Position numbers and translations under genes: made by a program | Notes under the pieces: generated by a model | Told to the model about the DNA's origin: nothing | Seen by the model: the letters and a program-made list of their open reading frames with translations, nothing else | Database searches by the model: none | Assembly (NCBI GenBank): GCA_024407875.1 | Contig: JAKSVT010000001.1 | Span: 117,091 to 181,090, forward strand | DNA: 64,000 nucleotides | Direction of reading: 5' to 3' | Origin: Alphaproteobacteria bacterium | Lineage (GTDB): Bacteria; Pseudomonadota; Alphaproteobacteria; CAAGCB01; CAG-977 | Part shown: positions 5,149 through 13,128 of the stretch, piece by piece | Position numbering within the stretch: the stretch's first letter is position 1 | Layout of the letters: every line of letters starts with the position of its first letter

Positions 5149-7062
5149 TTATTGTAAAGGTGGAATAGGAGGAATTTCCGGTATTTCAGGAATATCTTCT
5201 TGAGGAGGTTGTAATGGTTGAGCCCTTGTAATTGGAGGAATAGGGGAAGAAGCAACATTTGATGGAACTTTTGTTGAGCGTTGTAATGTAGAATTTTGTT
5301 GTTGTGTTTGAGGTATAGCTTTAGCAGCATTAATAGCTGCGTTGATAGCCTCATTTTGTTTCTTTATTCTATTTTCATTCATTAAAGCCATTAAATCTTG
5401 TTCAGCTTTTGATTTGAAGTCGTAATTCTTTAAAAATGTTTCATAATCACCACGAGTGTTTATATCAGACAAAATTAAAGGGTCTTTTATTTCATATTCT
5501 ACAGTTATATCTGTATGTTCAATTAGAGTTGGAATACAATATGAATCTTCAGGTATAACTTTTATTTGATCAAATAATTCTCTAGGCCATAAAACAGGAT
5601 TTGATCTAACATGGGCGTATGAAGGAACTACAACAGGTTTAAAATCATGAGTTTCTCTAAATAATCTAAACATGTCGTTCATCTGTCTAAAACTAAAAGC
5701 AGGCATATCAGTAGGCATTACTAGTACGCAATTAACGTCATTTGGTAACACAGAAATTCCTATTCTAATAGAACTTAAGATACCAGATAAGTAATCGGCA
5801 TTTCGTACTATTTTAACATCATATTGTTCTAATTGTTTTTCTATAAAATTGGATTGGTGCCCTGTTACAACAATTACATAGCCAGCATTAGAACTAAGAG
5901 CTTGTTCTACAATTCTTGTGATAAATGTTTGGCCTCCAACATCTAACAAAAGTTTGTTTTCGCTCATACGACCACTACGACCTGCTGCTAAAATAATTAC
6001 AGCAGTTTTGTCTCCTTTTTCTATTTCTCCTAAAGCTACAGATCTTCTTTTTTCTAGATCTTTTATTGCTCTATATTGATTATCTAAAGCTTGAGAGCCC
6101 ATAACCATAGATGGAATTAAGTCCATAGGAGGAATTGTTTTGGTGTTAACATGACAGAATAATCGCCGTAAAGAATTTTTAAAAAAGTCTGGATAATTAT
6201 ATCCTAAAAATACAGTATTTTTTCTGTGAGCTAAAACAATCTGAGAACCTTCGTCAAAAGGCCAATTCATTCTGTCAATATCAGTTGAAGCTTCAATAAG
6301 AGCTTTAGGAATAATATCTGATTTATCTTTAATTAAAGACATATCAGGAATACGACTTTCGATTAATACTACAGTAATTCCTGTTGCATAAGCACTTCTT
6401 ATAGCATTTTCAATTGAGGCAACAGTGCCTTCGCACATTTCAAAGTTTCTAATATCAAAACCAAAGGTTGCAAATCTTTTTTTTATGGCGGTATCATCTT
6501 CCGCATTTTTATTGATTTCATCTTTTTTATCAAAAACTTGAACTAAAACAGCTTTTACCAAATCATATTTTTTTATGGATAAAAGTATACCCATTCCACT
6601 TAAGCCTGATGTAATGCTATTAACAACACTTTCATCTACAGCAGGAGAATATATATGCAATGTTCCAATATATTGTCCATTAAAGACCGGAGTATAAGCA
6701 GGTAATAAAGATAATGAAACGCTATCAGATACTTTGTTTAATCTGTGAAGTCTTTCCTTGTCGTATACTAGTACGCCATTTATATCAGAAAATATATCTA
6801 TACAACCTTCATTTGAAATAGTTGTATATCTAGTGTAATCACCGCAAATAGAATGAACAAAAACATCGCCAGCTGTTTTTGCAGGAACATCTTTCGTAGA
6901 ATATAAAACACCAGAAACGCTGTGTATGCCGATGTTTCTAAGTATACGAATGTCTTCGCTAGTAAGGATATGTCCTACTGGGAAATCTCCTTGCGTAGTA
7001 GGAATTCTCTTTGTAAGCTCAACACCTTCAGCTTGATATAATCCAAACGTTCCTATTTGCAT
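5149..7062 (-). CDS. multidomain protein with MobA/MocA-like nucleotidyltransferase domain, ~340-aa N-terminal domain of unknown function and Pro-rich C-terminal tail
   Basis: Residues ~345-540 read KTAVIILAAGRSGRMSENKLLLDVGG...VLVMPTDMPAF, a MobA-like NTP_transf_3 signature. The C-terminal tail is PIPPITRAQPLQPPQEDIPEIPEIPPIPPLQ. It lies 23 bp upstream of the HD gene on the same strand. Confidence 0.55.
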   Translation of the reverse strand: MQIGTFGLYQAEGVELTKRIPTTQGDFPVGHILTSEDIRILRNIGIHSVSGVLYSTKDVPAKTAGDVFVHSICGDYTRYTTISNEGCIDIFSDINGVLVYDKERLHRLNKVSDSVSLSLLPAYTPVFNGQYIGTLHIYSPAVDESVVNSITSGLSGMGILLSIKKYDLVKAVLVQVFDKKDEINKNAEDDTAIKKRFATFGFDIRNFEMCEGTVASIENAIRSAYATGITVVLIESRIPDMSLIKDKSDIIPKALIEASTDIDRMNWPFDEGSQIVLAHRKNTVFLGYNYPDFFKNSLRRLFCHVNTKTIPPMDLIPSMVMGSQALDNQYRAIKDLEKRRSVALGEIEKGDKTAVIILAAGRSGRMSENKLLLDVGGQTFITRIVEQALSSNAGYVIVVTGHQSNFIEKQLEQYDVKIVRNADYLSGILSSIRIGISVLPNDVNCVLVMPTDMPAFSFRQMNDMFRLFRETHDFKPVVVPSYAHVRSNPVLWPRELFDQIKVIPEDSYCIPTLIEHTDITVEYEIKDPLILSDINTRGDYETFLKNYDFKSKAEQDLMALMNENRIKKQNEAINAAINAAKAIPQTQQQNSTLQRSTKVPSNVASSPIPPITRAQPLQPPQEDIPEIPEIPPIPPLQ

Positions 7063-7087: not shown

Positions 7088-10039
7088 TTATTTAGCATTA
7101 TTCATCATTAATAATACGTCTGAATCTATATCAACTAATCTATTGTCAGGTTTAAACATTTTCTTGAAAGGATAGTTGAAATTCAATTCTATTCTATCAT
7201 TTGTTGTATTTAAAGGAGTATGCCCTTCTAATCGAAGTTTAAATGAAGCGTTTTCATTCATATTGCCTTTACCTTTAAGAGCAAATTTAGATACCATAGT
7301 TTCTTTTAACAAATTTAATGTGTTTGGATCCATAGCAGCTTTTGTTGCATCATCAGGATTAAAGTGAATTGTGCCTGGTAATTTAGATGCAGCTGTTAAT
7401 TCGTTCATAGCTAAACCTTTATCAGTAAATCCAATTTTCCAAGTCATTGTTGCTGTTCCATCAGCTTGTAAATTGTTAGAAATTAAATTTTCTGTGAATT
7501 CTGATAAATCTAAATTGCTAATTTCATACAACATATCTGCAGGAGGTTTTCCAAATGGATAAGAGAATGTTTTAATATTCTTTATATTAGCTCCTAAGAA
7601 TTTTCCAGAAATAGAAGAAAAACGAACTTCTTGACTAGGAATTACTTGGTAGTTAAATAACATTTTATTTAAAGGAATGCCAAAATTAATATGAGATACA
7701 AAAAACTTTTGGTCTTCTGGTGTTGCAAATGGTACAAGTTGTGATATTTGCATTACAGAATTAATTCCATCAAATTGAATATTCTTCCAATTTGCTGATC
7801 CATTTTCAATCATCATATTAAGAGGACCTTTAATTCTATCCTCATTTACAGAAATTCTTCCTTTAGCTGTAATTGTTGCTTTTGTATTGTCATCTAAATG
7901 GGATGATAATAAAGGCAATACTTTAGAGATAGTTACTTCTTGTCCATTTATTGCTGTTTTTGGTAAATTGAAATACATATCCCATTGGTGTGTAATTAAA
8001 GAATAAGTACCATCTAATGTGAAATTTACAGCTCCATTGACCATAGCTATTCTTGATTGAATTTGATATTCGTTCATTCTTGTAGGTTTTAAAGAAAATT
8101 GCATTGCCATTTCAGCATATTTTTCTTTTTCATTAGGAATAAACTGAGCAATATTAAATCTTCCACTTGGCCAAGTTTTATCATTTATTTCTAAAGCTGC
8201 TGCTATGCCTCGGATTGTAAAGTCTTTAGTAGCGATAGCTCCATTAGATATTGTAACTGTTCCTGTGTGTCCTGGGGAGAATAAATTTGTTTTTACATTA
8301 ATTTTATTGTTGTTAAATGCTCCTGCAACAGCAATATTAGACAAAGCATCTGTAATCATAGCATTAATTGAAACGCCAGGAATAGGAATATTAAAATCTA
8401 AATTACCCCCATCGGTTTTCAAGAAAGGTTCTTTTTCATCAGGATTAATTTTGAAAGAAACCGGTTTGAAGATGTTAATCAACCTAAATTGTGTTTTCAT
8501 AATCATCTTATCAAATGAGATATCCATAGGATTTGACATTTTAATTACACACTTAGAGGTTTCACATTCAATATATGCATCTTGCTTCATGCTTAATTTA
8601 TCAAATTCTGTAGAACCATTTGATAACTTTTCACTAAAGAATTCATATGGTATATGACCCTTAAAGTGTTGTTGTGTGCCACTCATTTCCATATCTTTGA
8701 TTGTGAATAAAATAGCACCAGTAAATTTGCCTGCAGATTTTTCTAAGTCTTCAAAAGATCTATTGATTGTTAAATTAATATCAAATTTTCCATCATGAGG
8801 AACAGTTTCTCCTCTAATGGCGAGTTTTCCTGCATCTGATTGAATGGTTAAATCTGTATTTCCTTTAGTAAGCACACCTTTTATAACAGAGACTTCTGTA
8901 AGGCCTTTTACACTACCAATAACTTTTCCTTCTTTTATTAAATCTCCTTGAGTGATTTCCATTTTAATTTCAGCAGAATCAGAAGTTTTCTTTAAATTAG
9001 TTTCTGTTGTAAGTTTTGATGTCTCTGTATCATAATCTGTTGTAATCGTTAAATTTAAATTAGATCCAATAAGTGAACCTTTTGCACTAAATCCAAATTT
9101 AACAGTTTCATCAATTACTTGATCGTTTTCATCTTTTTTAGGAAAATTTGTTTCGCGCTTTAATGTGAATTTTGAGTTGTTGATGTTTATAGAAGGAATG
9201 CTAACAGGTTTAGCGGAGCTTGCCTTTTTGGAAGATGTAATTAACTCTCCAACAGGTCCTAAAGAAATACCATCGTCTCTTCTAACTCCTGTTAAATTCA
9301 AACCTTCAATTGTTAATGATTTAAGTCTGTTATTTTGCAACAAGTCTTTAAAATCAAAGCGAGCAGTAACTTTGCTTGCATTCATTGTCTTTTTTGCATC
9401 TGATACTTTGCTGAGAACCAAATCATGGTATGATACAGATACAACTTCAAAATTACCTAATTTAATACCACTTTCAGCAAGAATTTCTGGTAATTTGTTT
9501 TGTGCTAAAACAGGTAATTTGTCCCAAGCAATTTTTAATCCGATGCCTAATATAATTAATATAACAAGGATTTTGAACCATATTGATTTAATAAAATCAT
9601 GTAATTGGTCCATAAATATTTCTTTGCCTGTTTTACGTTTTGTTGCTTCATCTACTAATCCAACTTCATCAAATCTTGAAGATCTAAAAAGGGCGCTTTG
9701 AGCAGGTTTAGATGTATCTGCATCAGCGCTAGGAGAGGCTTGTGTATTTGCAGTTGGATTTGCTGCCATTGCAGGATTTGATTGAGCTACAGCTTTAGCT
9801 ATCTGAGCTTCTTTTTTGCGAGTGTCTTCATCTTCATCAGGTAAAGGAGGCTCTTCTTCTAAAGAAGGCTTGTTAGTAGGTGCTGCTTGGGCAGGTTTTG
9901 GTGCTCCCGGATTTGCAACAGCTTGAGGATTTGGAGCATTAGGCCTTACGGTCGAAACTCTGAGGGCTTTTTTTACAACTTTTTTTTGCACAGTATTGGT
10001 AGGTTGTGCAGCAGTTGCTTCGTTTTCTGTATCGGCCAT
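7088..10039 (-). CDS. large membrane-anchored protein, AsmA/TamB-like (putative)
   Basis: 983 aa. It has an N-terminal ~150-aa Pro/Ala-rich cytoplasmic region, a single TM segment (IWFKILVILIILGIGLKIAW), then ~800 aa of beta-rich periplasmic sequence. The family assignment is by architecture only. Confidence 0.35.
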   Translation of the reverse strand: MADTENEATAAQPTNTVQKKVVKKALRVSTVRPNAPNPQAVANPGAPKPAQAAPTNKPSLEEEPPLPDEDEDTRKKEAQIAKAVAQSNPAMAANPTANTQASPSADADTSKPAQSALFRSSRFDEVGLVDEATKRKTGKEIFMDQLHDFIKSIWFKILVILIILGIGLKIAWDKLPVLAQNKLPEILAESGIKLGNFEVVSVSYHDLVLSKVSDAKKTMNASKVTARFDFKDLLQNNRLKSLTIEGLNLTGVRRDDGISLGPVGELITSSKKASSAKPVSIPSININNSKFTLKRETNFPKKDENDQVIDETVKFGFSAKGSLIGSNLNLTITTDYDTETSKLTTETNLKKTSDSAEIKMEITQGDLIKEGKVIGSVKGLTEVSVIKGVLTKGNTDLTIQSDAGKLAIRGETVPHDGKFDINLTINRSFEDLEKSAGKFTGAILFTIKDMEMSGTQQHFKGHIPYEFFSEKLSNGSTEFDKLSMKQDAYIECETSKCVIKMSNPMDISFDKMIMKTQFRLINIFKPVSFKINPDEKEPFLKTDGGNLDFNIPIPGVSINAMITDALSNIAVAGAFNNNKINVKTNLFSPGHTGTVTISNGAIATKDFTIRGIAAALEINDKTWPSGRFNIAQFIPNEKEKYAEMAMQFSLKPTRMNEYQIQSRIAMVNGAVNFTLDGTYSLITHQWDMYFNLPKTAINGQEVTISKVLPLLSSHLDDNTKATITAKGRISVNEDRIKGPLNMMIENGSANWKNIQFDGINSVMQISQLVPFATPEDQKFFVSHINFGIPLNKMLFNYQVIPSQEVRFSSISGKFLGANIKNIKTFSYPFGKPPADMLYEISNLDLSEFTENLISNNLQADGTATMTWKIGFTDKGLAMNELTAASKLPGTIHFNPDDATKAAMDPNTLNLLKETMVSKFALKGKGNMNENASFKLRLEGHTPLNTTNDRIELNFNYPFKKMFKPDNRLVDIDSDVLLMMNNAK

Positions 10040-10142
10040 AAAAATTCTCCATAAAGTAAAACATTTATTTACGAAATTTTGCTAAGAATCTCTCGTAGAT
10101 ATTAAAATTTAGGTTATTATACGGAAAAGAAAAATAAATTCA

Positions 10143-10694
10143 ATGAAAATACAAGCTCTACGAACAGTATTTGAAGCAGTTGAATGGATTAGAGATACAG
10201 CTAATGCAGAAAAAATACATTTATCTGCCGTAAAATTGCATTCAATTCTTTATTTAATGCAAGGATATTATTCTGCAATAACTAATGGTGAGAAGTTTAT
10301 TCCATGTGTTTTTTTGGCAACGCATAGAGGCCCAATAGAGCCTTCAAGCTATTATTTGTACGAATCGGCTATTGTAAGATTTACAGATAATTATTTGCTT
10401 AACACAATTAATAAAGATTCAAGAGTTTTTATGGAAACTATATGGCAAAAGTTTGCATTTACATCAGAAGATAATCTTATCGATTTAATTTCAAGACATG
10501 AGCCTTTTATGAAAGCTTTAAAAAATAAAACCAATAATGAAATTAATATTCAGGAATTGGGTGAATTTTTTGCAAATTCTCAAGTTAAATCTAGTCCTAT
10601 GCCGGAAGAATATTCTCCAAACGGTACAAGAGTTCTAAGAAATCAAGCTGGACTTGCAATAAAAGTAAAAAAATGGGTTCCTACAAATAAATAA
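10143..10694 (+). CDS. Panacea-domain (DUF4065, SocA/GepA-like) protein
   Basis: KIHLSAVKLHSILYLMQGYYSAITNGEKFIPCVFLATHRGPIEPSSYY fits the DUF4065 core (kLqKLlYlaqg...feAw.hGPv.p.vY). Confidence 0.55.
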   Translation: MKIQALRTVFEAVEWIRDTANAEKIHLSAVKLHSILYLMQGYYSAITNGEKFIPCVFLATHRGPIEPSSYYLYESAIVRFTDNYLLNTINKDSRVFMETIWQKFAFTSEDNLIDLISRHEPFMKALKNKTNNEINIQELGEFFANSQVKSSPMPEEYSPNGTRVLRNQAGLAIKVKKWVPTNK

Positions 10695-10812
10695 TAAAAA
10701 TATAGATTTTTTTTACTTTCTTTTAATAACATTTTAATAAGTTAATATGTAAAATTATAAATAATAATGAAAAAACTGTTTAATTCAGTTCAAATAGAAA
10801 AGGGAACAGACA

Positions 10813-11697
10813 ATGCAGGATTTAGAATATAGAGTAGAAAAACTTGAAAAGAAATGTCGTACATTAAAAAGATGTGTGATTGGTTTAACATGCTGTGCAG
10901 TTCTTGCTGGATTGTCTGGTCGAGCATCTGTTAATACAAATGCTAATGCTGCAGGTGAGGAATTAACTGCTAAAGATGTTGGTATTCCTTCAATTGTAGA
11001 AGCTCAAATCTTTATGTTAAAAGATTCTGGTGGCAATATTCGTGGTATTTGGACAGCTGATGATATGACAACATCTTTTGCTATGATGCATAAAGGTAAA
11101 TTCCCAATTATTTCTATGGCAGTTGATAATAAAAATGCATCTATGTCTTTGACTGATGTTTATAAAGGCAAAATTAATTTAGGATTGCAAAACAATATTC
11201 GTTCTATTTCTGTAGCTGATGAAACAGGTAAGAATAACATTTATATGGGATTGTCAGGATCTGGCGAAGCTTCTCTTGATATGGTAAGTACAGGTTCTTC
11301 ACAACTCGCAATTGATGGTCAAAAGGCTTCAATTGATTTAACAGGAGACCGTGCTGTTGTTGCTTTGGCAGAAACAGTAGGTTCAGCAGTTGCAATTCAA
11401 GCTCAACCAAGTGCAAGTTCAGTTGTATTCTTGGATCATAAAGAAGCAAAGACTGTAGAATTGTCAACAATCGATGGAAAAACAAAGTTGATGATGAATT
11501 CTCCTGTTGAAAAACAAGAAAAGACAATTGATACAACAAAAGATAAAATAATTGCTGTAGATGCTTCAGTAGAAGAAACAGCAGAAAAAGACGCAGGTAA
11601 AGTATCCACAGAAGGTTCAGAAGGTAAAGATGCTGAAAAAAGCGAAGCAAAAGAGAAAGAAGTCGATTTGAAAGACTATTCTCCATTTAGTAAGTAA
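10813..11697 (+). CDS. hypothetical membrane-anchored/periplasmic protein
   Basis: It has an N-terminal coiled coil, then a TM/signal-anchor (CVIGLTCCAVLAGLSG), then ~240 aa of Ser/Thr/Gly-rich periplasmic sequence and a K/E-rich tail. No recognisable family. Confidence 0.4.
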   Translation: MQDLEYRVEKLEKKCRTLKRCVIGLTCCAVLAGLSGRASVNTNANAAGEELTAKDVGIPSIVEAQIFMLKDSGGNIRGIWTADDMTTSFAMMHKGKFPIISMAVDNKNASMSLTDVYKGKINLGLQNNIRSISVADETGKNNIYMGLSGSGEASLDMVSTGSSQLAIDGQKASIDLTGDRAVVALAETVGSAVAIQAQPSASSVVFLDHKEAKTVELSTIDGKTKLMMNSPVEKQEKTIDTTKDKIIAVDASVEETAEKDAGKVSTEGSEGKDAEKSEAKEKEVDLKDYSPFSK

Positions 11698-11738
11698 AAG
11701 AATATTATTTTTTTTAAGTTCTGTTCTCATACACTTAA

Positions 11739-11766
11739 GGCCGGAAGAATTCCGGCCTATTTTTTC
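11739..11766 (+). terminator. rho-independent terminator
   Basis: ggccggaa-gaa-ttccggcc is a perfect 8-bp stem, followed by tatttttt. Confidence 0.7.
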
Positions 11767-11895
11767 TTTAAAAATCAAAGCGTAAATATAAAAAAAACTT
11801 GATTTTTTAAGGTATAGCGTTATAAAAAAGTCAATAAGTATATTTGTTTTTTTTGTATAGTTTATATTTGTATCTATAAAAGAGTTAGGAAAAAA

Positions 11896-13128
11896 ATGGC
11901 TGTTGTTGTTCAAAAATTTGGTGGAACTTCAGTTGGTGATGTTGATAGAATAAGAAATGTCGCTAATAAAGTAAAAAAAGAATATGATAAGGGCAATCAG
12001 GTAGTTGTCGTTGTATCAGCAATGGCTGGTGTTACAAATCAATTAGTAGAATTATGTGGAGATGTAAATCCTTCATATGATATGAAAGAATATGACACTG
12101 TTGTTTCTACAGGTGAACAAGTAACAATTGGCTTGTTAGCTATTGCTTTACAATCTATTGGAGTTCCGGCTAGATCCTTTACTGGTTGGCAATTGCATAT
12201 GATAACAGATGAAGAAGCAGGTAAAGCTAGAATTGATCATATAGATGTTGATGATATAAAAAAATGTTTAGATAAGGGCATTGTTCCTGTTGTTGCAGGG
12301 TTTCAAGGTGTTGATGAAAATAATCGTATTACAACATTAGGTCGTGGTGGCTCAGATACATCAGCTGTAGCTATAGCAGCAGCTTTAAAGGCTGATAGAT
12401 GCGATATTTATACCGATGTTGATGGTGTTTATACAACAGATCCAAGATTTGTAAAAAGTGCTCGTAGATTAGATAAATTAACTTATGAAGAAATGCTAGA
12501 AATGGCTTCTTTAGGTGCTAAAGTTTTACAAACACGTTCTGTAGAATTGGCTATGAAATATCAAGTTAATTTAAGAGTTGTTTCAAGCTTCGAAGAAGAA
12601 CCTATAGGTACTACTATTTGTGATGAGGAGGATATTGTGGAAAAAGAATTAATAAGTGGAATTACTTACAGTAGAGATGAAGCAAAAATTACTTTGTCTG
12701 GAGTTCGTGATGAACCTGGTGTAAGTGCTGCAGTATTCGATGCTTTAGCATCTGCAAATATTTGTGTTGACATGATTGTTCAAACAGACTCAGCTGATGG
12801 TAGTAGAACAGATATTACATTTACATTAGCTCAAGGTGATGTAAATAAGGCAATAAGTGTATTAGATTCAAATCATGATAAAATTGGGTATCATGGAATA
12901 AAATCAGATACTAATTGTGTTAAAGTTTCTGTTATTGGTGTAGGTATGAGAACTCATGCAGGTATTGCAAACAAGATGTTCCATGCTTTAAGTGAAAAAG
13001 GCATCAACGTCCAAACGATTTCAACATCAGAAATTAAGATTAGTGTTTTAATTGCTGACGAATATACAGAATTAGCAGTTCGTGCTTTGCACACAGCGTT
13101 CAATTTAGAAAACAAACATATTATCTAG
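11896..13128 (+). CDS. lysC: aspartate kinase
   Basis: The N-terminus MAVVVQKFGGTSVGDVDRIRNVANKV, 410 aa and ACT-like C-terminal halves are typical of aspartokinase. Confidence 0.85.
   Translation: MAVVVQKFGGTSVGDVDRIRNVANKVKKEYDKGNQVVVVVSAMAGVTNQLVELCGDVNPSYDMKEYDTVVSTGEQVTIGLLAIALQSIGVPARSFTGWQLHMITDEEAGKARIDHIDVDDIKKCLDKGIVPVVAGFQGVDENNRITTLGRGGSDTSAVAIAAALKADRCDIYTDVDGVYTTDPRFVKSARRLDKLTYEEMLEMASLGAKVLQTRSVELAMKYQVNLRVVSSFEEEPIGTTICDEEDIVEKELISGITYSRDEAKITLSGVRDEPGVSAAVFDALASANICVDMIVQTDSADGSRTDITFTLAQGDVNKAISVLDSNHDKIGYHGIKSDTNCVKVSVIGVGMRTHAGIANKMFHALSEKGINVQTISTSEIKISVLIADEYTELAVRALHTAFNLENKHII

Follow-up and report, generated by a model that had tools for sequence, protein, structure and literature searches.

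A divergent Panacea-domain protein and a clade-specific envelope protein in a vertically inherited locus of gut Alphaproteobacteria

We analysed a 64,000-nt stretch of an alphaproteobacterial genome (assembly GCA_024407875.1, contig JAKSVT010000001.1, positions 117,091 to 181,090; hereafter the window, GC content 31.4%) and in it a pair of adjacent genes, called A and B here, which an earlier note had put forward as a candidate toxin–antitoxin (TA) or adaptor module of the PanA type. Gene A encodes a divergent Panacea-domain protein and gene B a predicted membrane-anchored periplasmic protein. We found that the pair behaves like an inherited chromosomal housekeeping transcription unit rather than a mobile TA pair, and it is not a classical PanAT module. 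The TA reading is disfavoured because A is order-wide, single-copy and vertically inherited and persists without B, and because the pair is present throughout its clade and B is conserved. As an alternative we favour, by analogy, an adaptor role for A: it may be a Panacea protein that has been domesticated as a binder or adaptor and is co-expressed with a clade-specific envelope protein, a reading that we adopt tentatively. The elements of the unit are the following:

10143..10694, + strand: gene A, open reading frame (ORF) of 183 aa from the ORF list; putatively cytoplasmic Panacea-domain protein of an order-wide Rhodospirillales family
10695..10812, no strand: A–B intergenic gap of 118 bp, AT-rich, from the sequence
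10813..11697, + strand: gene B, ORF of 294 aa from the ORF list; predicted envelope protein with bitopic, N-in topology; its family is unnamed
11738..11758, + strand: intrinsic terminator after B, with a stem of 9 pairs, 6 of them GC, followed by a T-run

Both reading frames, with their coordinates and lengths, the AT-rich gap and the terminator closing the pair are as the earlier note had described them.

Inheritance and gene neighbourhood

A word-indexed search with A returned A itself only. We regard this as a sensitivity artefact because synteny and profile searches did recover relatives: on the contigs of the B homologues (n = 70, 44–66% identity) a gene of 175–181 aa lies directly 5′ of B in every case, and these genes align with A over the full length at 33–42% identity. 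Relatives of A at 26–44% identity were found via this synteny and then by profile search, which yielded 52 clusters and extends to cultured Phaeovibrio and Terasakiella. When a single genome of each GTDB species was scanned, A relatives proved present in at least 212 species genomes. Neighbourhoods were read in the 80 best loci of these 212 genomes; ORFs were called in all loci, clustered and searched with hidden Markov models (HMMs) built from the clusters. The best 80 loci come from metagenome-assembled genomes (MAGs) of gut, rumen and faecal Alphaproteobacteria and from Rhodospirillales genera (Magnetospirillum, Rhodospirillum, Caenispirillum, Novispirillum, Haematospirillum, Telmatospirillum, Roseospira, Rhodospira, Terasakiella and others). 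Each fetched locus holds at most one copy of A.

The pairwise identities of A follow those of its neighbours, with Pearson r values (two computations each) of 0.92 and 0.93 for the MocA-like gene, 0.91 and 0.89 for the YdbH-like gene and 0.77 and 0.75 for B; a single computation gave 0.83 for DUF192. The lineage of the window forms a long branch for all genes compared. A tblastn search of the A family and B against 72,556 plasmids gave no match, nor did one of the A family against 50,697 phage records, and neither a GC anomaly nor a nearby tRNA was found at the A–B locus. Judged by these sequence comparisons, the A family is inherited vertically, chromosomal, single-copy and co-diverging with housekeeping neighbours. 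The TA proposal of the earlier note is weakened by the single-copy, co-diverging character of A together with the lack of plasmid relatives, GC anomaly and tRNA. Two loci with the alphaproteobacterial synteny of A are recorded under other taxa, on CAVCSV010000013.1 (L023) as Limosilactobacillus gorillae and on DATLJS010000038.1 (L090) as Candidatus Sulfotelmatobacter; these contigs are probably mis-binned in their source MAGs.

We compared 24 species genomes of the gut/rumen clade with 56 loci of other Rhodospirillales. Gene B comes directly after A in 24/24 genomes of the gut clade, as against 0 of 48 judgeable loci of the other group. The conservation of the pair among relatives, which the earlier note had proposed as a check, thus holds within the gut clade and fails in the other Rhodospirillales; the presence of A without B in 48 of 48 such loci is the first of the three things that note had named as speaking against it, and the TA reading is unsupported here. 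A DUF192 gene (PF02643) is found in the locus in all 24 gut-clade genomes, directly after B, and in 10/56 of the others, with Haematospirillum carrying it directly after A. It is absent from the whole 64-kb window, which sets the window genome apart; here (11698–11895) B is followed by the terminator and then directly by aspartokinase. A YdbH-like gene lies divergently upstream of A in 23/23 judgeable gut-clade loci and in 15 of the 49 judgeable loci of the other group. In several other Rhodospirillales A forms a monocistronic unit with ydbH on one side and a convergent chaN on the other; in Novispirillum it stands alone, its neighbours being enolase and a diguanylate cyclase gene that is convergent to it. 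A further locus, L095, was located by a metagenome scan with the nearest B relatives outside the clade (P0127, P0129 and P0131, a 3-sequence alignment). Its B-like protein is only 33–41% identical, yet the adjacency of A and B is kept.

A and B are probably co-transcribed. No convincing terminator was seen between the two genes in the window; in L001 and L004, terminator-like hairpins likewise lie immediately 3′ of B and are lacking between the two genes. Promoter-like matches inside the 118-bp gap of the window occur at chance level. The gap measures 41–139 nt in relatives, 41–94 nt in several of them. In L095 the A homologue, the B-like gene and the DUF192 gene overlap by 8 and 11 nt and form a tight operon, and L096 shows the same order, A then B. 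An Rfam scan of 9900–12000 gave sub-threshold matches only, on the terminator hairpin.

The genes 3′ of the A–B unit (aspartokinase, rodZ and ispG) are housekeeping genes. On the 5′ side the locus continues as follows:

10040..10142, no strand: divergent intergenic region between A and the YdbH-like gene, from the sequence
7088..10039, − strand: YdbH-like (AsmA-like) gene, 983 aa, by PF11739 and synteny
5149..7062, − strand: fusion gene with a MocA-like nucleotidyltransferase, 637 aa, behind the YdbH-like gene

The divergent AsmA-like neighbour reported earlier is borne out by PF11739, which the YdbH-like protein of the window matches with 41.5 bits (E 1.1e-10; cut-off 26.3). In other Rhodospirillales (L039, L045, L060, L070 and L091) the YdbH-like gene is followed by a YnbE-like gene (PF13617) and a DUF1318/YdbL gene (PF07027). 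We found ynbE and ydbL neither in the window nor in any of the 38 loci of the gut clade and L095–L096, within the 12–64 kb examined per genome. The local distribution of these two genes complements that of B, and at these loci the MocA-like fusion abuts ydbH. The 637-aa fusion itself consists of an unknown N-terminal domain of ∼340 aa, a MocA-like NTP transferase (1e-38 against TIGR03310, which is sub-threshold) and a C-terminal tail rich in Pro; by inspection of the sequences, its orthologue elsewhere in Rhodospirillales adjoins XdhC-, CoxM- and CoxS-like genes. Residues 1–150 of the YdbH-like protein (9590–10039, − strand) form a low-complexity cytoplasmic extension rich in A, P, Q, N and K before the membrane anchor. 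We considered this extension as a binding site for A and rejected it: the 150 residues are not conserved, and the Phaeovibrio orthologue has ∼30 aa before its transmembrane segment.

At least 13 non-gut loci encode, immediately 5′ of A and in the same orientation, a protein of an unnamed family of ∼137–155 aa (as f24 in L041, L050, L062, L081, L087, L088 and L090, as f181 in L076, L078 and L083, and also in L014 at 6438–6905). The N-terminus of its members is disordered, and a motif ‘YEL.xRV..G’ is conserved at the C-terminus. In loci where A adjoins ydbH, the gene lies 5.5–6.5 kb from A instead. No Pfam model matches this family, and no member was found in the window or the gut clade.

Architecture of the two proteins

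The Panacea core that the earlier note had recognized in A holds at the level of the family and fails the threshold for the copy in the window. Against PF13274, A scores 19.9 bits (E 0.0015, covering profile positions 4–110 of 113), under the cut-off of 25.7; among 16 relatives, 14 match at E ≤ 0.1 with 20–28 bits, and only P0119 and P0120 are above the cut-off. PHROG 1281 matches aa 8–160 of A at 4e-10 and relatives down to 4e-19. Kurata et al. 2022 (PMC8832971) name a GPV motif as the signature of Panacea domains. The corresponding residues of A are G63-P64-I65, relatives have GPV, GPL or GPI, and G63, P64, E66 and P67 are invariant across the 16 family members. A Foldseek search of the predicted structure against BFVD retrieved unnamed phage proteins (TM-scores 0.60/0.75, probability 1.0, E 7e-6); a match labelled ‘SocA-like Panacea’ is weak, at rank 10. 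Among solved structures in the PDB, A has no sequence match and no significant Foldseek match. NCBIfam gave no meaningful match for A or B and PADLOC no match; the SocA equivalog model NF047745 reaches 15 bits with A (cut-off 190; E 0.015) over aa 17–74 only. Because of the PF13274 matches within the family, PHROG 1281, the phage proteins found by Foldseek and the GP[V/I] motif, we assign A as a divergent Panacea-domain protein, a family-level call that is sound but marginal. Since A has no hydrophobic segment, it is predicted to be cytoplasmic. Its parts are:

10143..10586, + strand: Panacea core, aa 1–148, a predicted helical bundle (AlphaFold2 (AF2), Foldseek against BFVD)
10329..10337, + strand: GP[V/I] motif G63-P64-I65 (conservation in 16 members)
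10587..10622, + strand: linker, aa 149–160, variable and predicted disordered (AF2, alignment)
10623..10691, + strand: basic C-terminal peptide, aa 161–183, net charge +6 (conservation)

The AF2 model of A has a mean predicted local distance difference test (pLDDT) score of 83.7. Blocks of the core score mostly 88–97, with a dip to ∼66 at aa 71–90, and a small β-hairpin is predicted at aa 58–65. The linker falls below 50 at aa 150–158 and varies in length and sequence within the family. The C-terminal peptide has the consensus PRV[LM]RSQTGKxVxVKKWxP in relatives; five residues (R163, R166, G170, V175 and W178) are invariant, and two more (K176 and P180) reach at least 90% conservation. Lineages that lack B conserve tail and core to the same degree as lineages that have it. 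As the tail is kept irrespective of B, it would make a contact common to the whole order.

The segments of B are listed below:

10813..10872, + strand: predicted cytoplasmic N-terminal heptad helix, aa 1–20, net charge +3 (conservation, AF2)
10873..10923, + strand: hydrophobic membrane segment, ∼aa 21–37 (Kyte–Doolittle)
10930–10950, + strand: conserved AxA-Q, aa 40–46, with A44 and A46 conserved
10984..11532, + strand: predicted periplasmic β-hairpin meander, aa 58–240 (AF2)
11662..11694, + strand: C-terminal motif V[ND][ML]KxYSPF[GS]K, aa 284–294, with K287, Y289, P291 and F292 conserved

Residues L4, E5, R7, L11 and E12 of the N-terminal helix are invariant in 30 homologues. The AF2 model (pLDDT 65.7) places a helix at aa 2–40, and there is a single hydrophobic segment with a Kyte–Doolittle maximum of 1.72 at aa 18–34. 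From the +3 helix preceding this segment we predict an N-in topology. The conserved AxA-Q ∼10 residues past the segment would make cleavage by signal peptidase I possible beside anchoring. In the body, aa 58–240, 13 antiparallel strands are predicted with pLDDT of 70–84; the tail is K/E-rich (35% K+E), disordered (pLDDT below 50) and ends in the conserved YSPF motif. We also considered B as a lipoprotein and ruled this out, as the Cys residues of the transmembrane segment are not conserved and no lipobox is present. The coiled-coil N-terminus, the single membrane segment and the charged tail described in the earlier note were thus recovered. Its ‘repetitive S/T/G-rich’ body proved overstated: S+T+G amounts to 26%, and internal repetition is weak, with z = 1.8 in a half-against-half self-alignment. 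The repetition takes the form of a hydrophobic/β-strand periodicity of ∼12 residues, which is clearer in distant relatives.

That B fits no recognized family also stood up, with no match in Pfam, NCBIfam, PADLOC or the PDB, where a sequence search gave only trivial coiled-coil matches. A profile of 30 B homologues recovered 86 representatives (E ≤ 1e-3) that match positions 60–160 in several stretches. This wider family spans ∼70–350 aa, mostly ∼150–330 aa, and no Pfam model covers its members; those inspected carry an N-terminal helix of the LExxNRxLK type, one transmembrane segment and repeated hairpin units of the form VEAxxFxLxDxxGxxRGxW. By sequence, B is a member of a broad unnamed family with a short coiled coil, one transmembrane helix and periplasmic β-hairpin repeats. 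Its mean pairwise identity is 61.7%, in comparison to 62.1% for the housekeeping neighbour. B looks unlike a toxin because it is conserved like this neighbour, ubiquitous in the clade and part of a broad family of anchored β-repeat proteins.

Alternative explanations

If A is a domesticated adaptor, its anatomy would be that of a tethering protein, with a folded binding core, a disordered linker and an invariant basic C-terminal peptide that would dock A onto an order-wide partner, for example a protease or another machine. B would have been gained by the ancestor of the gut/rumen clade and have entered the unit between A and the DUF192 gene. It would be inserted N-in into the inner membrane, with a cytoplasmic helix, a periplasmic β-hairpin sheet and a disordered tail ending in YSPF. 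Because the N-terminal helix is the sole part of B that A could reach, we propose it as the contact: in the gut clade this helix may be one client of A, and the contact would control insertion, assembly or turnover of B. The locus may then serve envelope biogenesis alongside the divergent YdbH-like lipid-transport gene, a proposal consistent with that neighbour and with the membrane-anchored, periplasmic character of B.

Several points weigh against this proposal. That A binds B or anything else is something we infer, and the docking role assigned to the tail would follow from its architecture. The A copy in the window lies under the Pfam threshold, which two members of the family pass. A weak promoter-like site in the A–B gap means that B might have its own transcription. 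The antitoxin-first order, the Panacea identity, the transmembrane partner and the gaps of 41–94 nt would satisfy published in silico criteria for PanAT, so that B may yet be a toxin, and SocAB is a chromosomal, stably inherited Panacea pair. Finally, the partial correlation of A and B identities given the MocA-like gene is −0.22 in 22 gut-clade genomes, so no residual co-variation is left. This absence of co-variation beyond phylogeny would be expected if the two genes had no functional link, A having an order-wide function of its own and B having been inserted beside it to share a transcript or a neighbourhood. The conservation of A without B, the equal conservation of its tail and core with and without B, and a syntenic backbone with lineage-specific insertions (f24, the ydbH block, DUF192 at varying distances) agree with such an account. 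However, adjacency is strict in 24/24 genomes and is kept, with overlapping frames, where B is only 33–41% identical; the terminator position is shared, and the window keeps A next to B though DUF192 is absent from its 64 kb. We consider a mere neighbourhood possible, though rather unlikely.

A genuine PanA–PanT type II or SocA-like type VI pair would make B a membrane-acting toxin, neutralized by A through binding or through delivery to a protease, with DUF192 as an accessory third gene. The putative Panacea fold and the GP[V/I] motif of A, the antitoxin-first order and the transmembrane helix of B are in line with this. So is the conservation of the pair across at least 24 species, frequently with gaps of ≤ 100 nt and with an overlap in L095, which matches published prediction criteria; membrane-targeting PanTs are known as well (PMC8832971). 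However, A is order-wide, single-copy and co-diverging, whereas published PanA trees do not follow taxonomy, and it persists without B in 48/48 other Rhodospirillales, while the pair itself, in 24/24 clade genomes, is not patchy. No plasmid, phage (A family) or defence-database match was obtained, the 118-nt gap of the window exceeds the 100-nt criterion, and the SocA equivalog HMM stays at 15 bits against a cut-off of 190. With 294 aa and a conserved periplasmic domain of 180 aa, B also differs from the small transmembrane peptides that serve as membrane PanTs. Taken together, we find a TA pair improbable. In another explanation B, with DUF192, is the periplasmic partner of the YdbH-like bridge in place of YnbE and YdbL, and A is a bystander or regulator. 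Here the gene content speaks in favour, since ynbE and ydbL follow ydbH in non-gut Rhodospirillales and are absent from the window and the 38 gut-clade and L095–L096 loci, with B present instead. Beyond phylogeny, B co-varies with the YdbH-like protein (partial r = +0.69 given the MocA-like gene, 22 gut-clade genomes), which weakly suggests that it follows the lipid-bridge protein and not A; partial correlations of this kind are fragile, as pairwise identities are non-independent and identity saturates. On the other hand, ynbE and ydbL could sit elsewhere in these genomes, of which 12–64 kb each were covered, B is encoded on the opposite strand from ydbH, and B would be anchored in the inner membrane whereas YnbE is reported to be an outer-membrane lipoprotein (PMC11126948). 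A partnership with the bridge is therefore less probable still. We give about the same small weight to the boldest combination, in which A would be an order-wide envelope-biogenesis adaptor that docks through its invariant C-terminal peptide and, in gut Alphaproteobacteria, controls B, and B and DUF192 would replace YnbE/YdbL at the YdbH-like bridge.

The Panacea domain is known from mobile, hyperpromiscuous antitoxins, and about half of all Panacea domains occur outside TA-like loci and are without known role (PMC8832971). While the domain and its TA role are already known, what is new here is a Panacea subfamily of the core genome that has a conserved tail, an envelope neighbourhood and a non-toxin-like partner; in the searchable literature we found nothing on a housekeeping Panacea family or on the function of DUF192. 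The locus is a concrete, well-sampled case of a Panacea protein outside a TA setting. It also calls for caution, as domain content and adjacency alone can mislead TA calling: a domain-plus-adjacency pipeline could flag A–B because of the Panacea domain, the gene order, the transmembrane helix, the adjacency and the short gaps. Cultured Rhodospirillum and Magnetospirillum carry an A-family gene but no B and offer a tractable system, and B points to a widespread unnamed family of anchored periplasmic β-repeat proteins. If A were an adaptor and B and DUF192 replaced YnbE/YdbL, a Panacea domain would for the first time have a cellular role outside TA systems, and B with DUF192 would be a new accessory system of AsmA-like lipid transport.

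Comparison with known systems

The tree of published PanA antitoxins departs from taxonomy, and their partner swapping reflects mobility (Kurata et al. 2022, PMC8832971); membrane PanTs are described there as small transmembrane peptides. A and B resemble these pairs in the Panacea core with its GP[V/I] motif, the antitoxin-first order, the transmembrane partner downstream and the conservation across species. In contrast, the A family is vertical, single-copy, order-wide and mostly without an adjacent partner, B is a 294-aa conserved periplasmic protein instead of a small toxic peptide or an enzyme, and the locus has an envelope-gene neighbourhood, Pfam scores at or below threshold and no sign of mobility. 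We also compared the A-family locus of Novispirillum with the Novispirillum PanA/T47 pair of the Kurata dataset, which does not fit: in this locus A has no same-strand gene downstream, a convergent gene following directly.

SocA–SocB of Caulobacter is a type VI TA system in which SocA is a ClpXP adaptor (Aakre et al. 2013, as summarized in PMC5422525 and PMC8832971). Like A, SocA is a Panacea protein on an alphaproteobacterial chromosome, and its adaptor function is the best functional analogy for the architecture of A. However, A fails the SocA equivalog NF047745 (15 vs 190 bits), and B would be membrane-anchored and periplasmic and resembles no known toxin, whereas SocB is cytoplasmic and clamp-binding. 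The ClpXP mechanism belongs to SocA and would extend to A by analogy only.

YdbH, YnbE and YdbL form an intermembrane lipid bridge of E. coli (PMC11126948; PMC13464000). The divergent neighbour of A is YdbH-like, and in non-gut Rhodospirillales it is followed by ynbE and ydbL, an arrangement shared with E. coli. The gut clade and the window differ in that both genes are missing locally, and A and B are without counterpart in the E. coli system.

SspB is a tethered proteolytic adaptor that consists of a substrate-binding domain, a flexible linker and a C-terminal ClpX-binding peptide. Its fold is unrelated to that of A, and the VAVKKWxP tail of A is only loosely like the LRVVK peptide of SspB. 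Nevertheless, A would have the same succession of parts, a folded domain, a variable disordered linker and a short invariant basic peptide.

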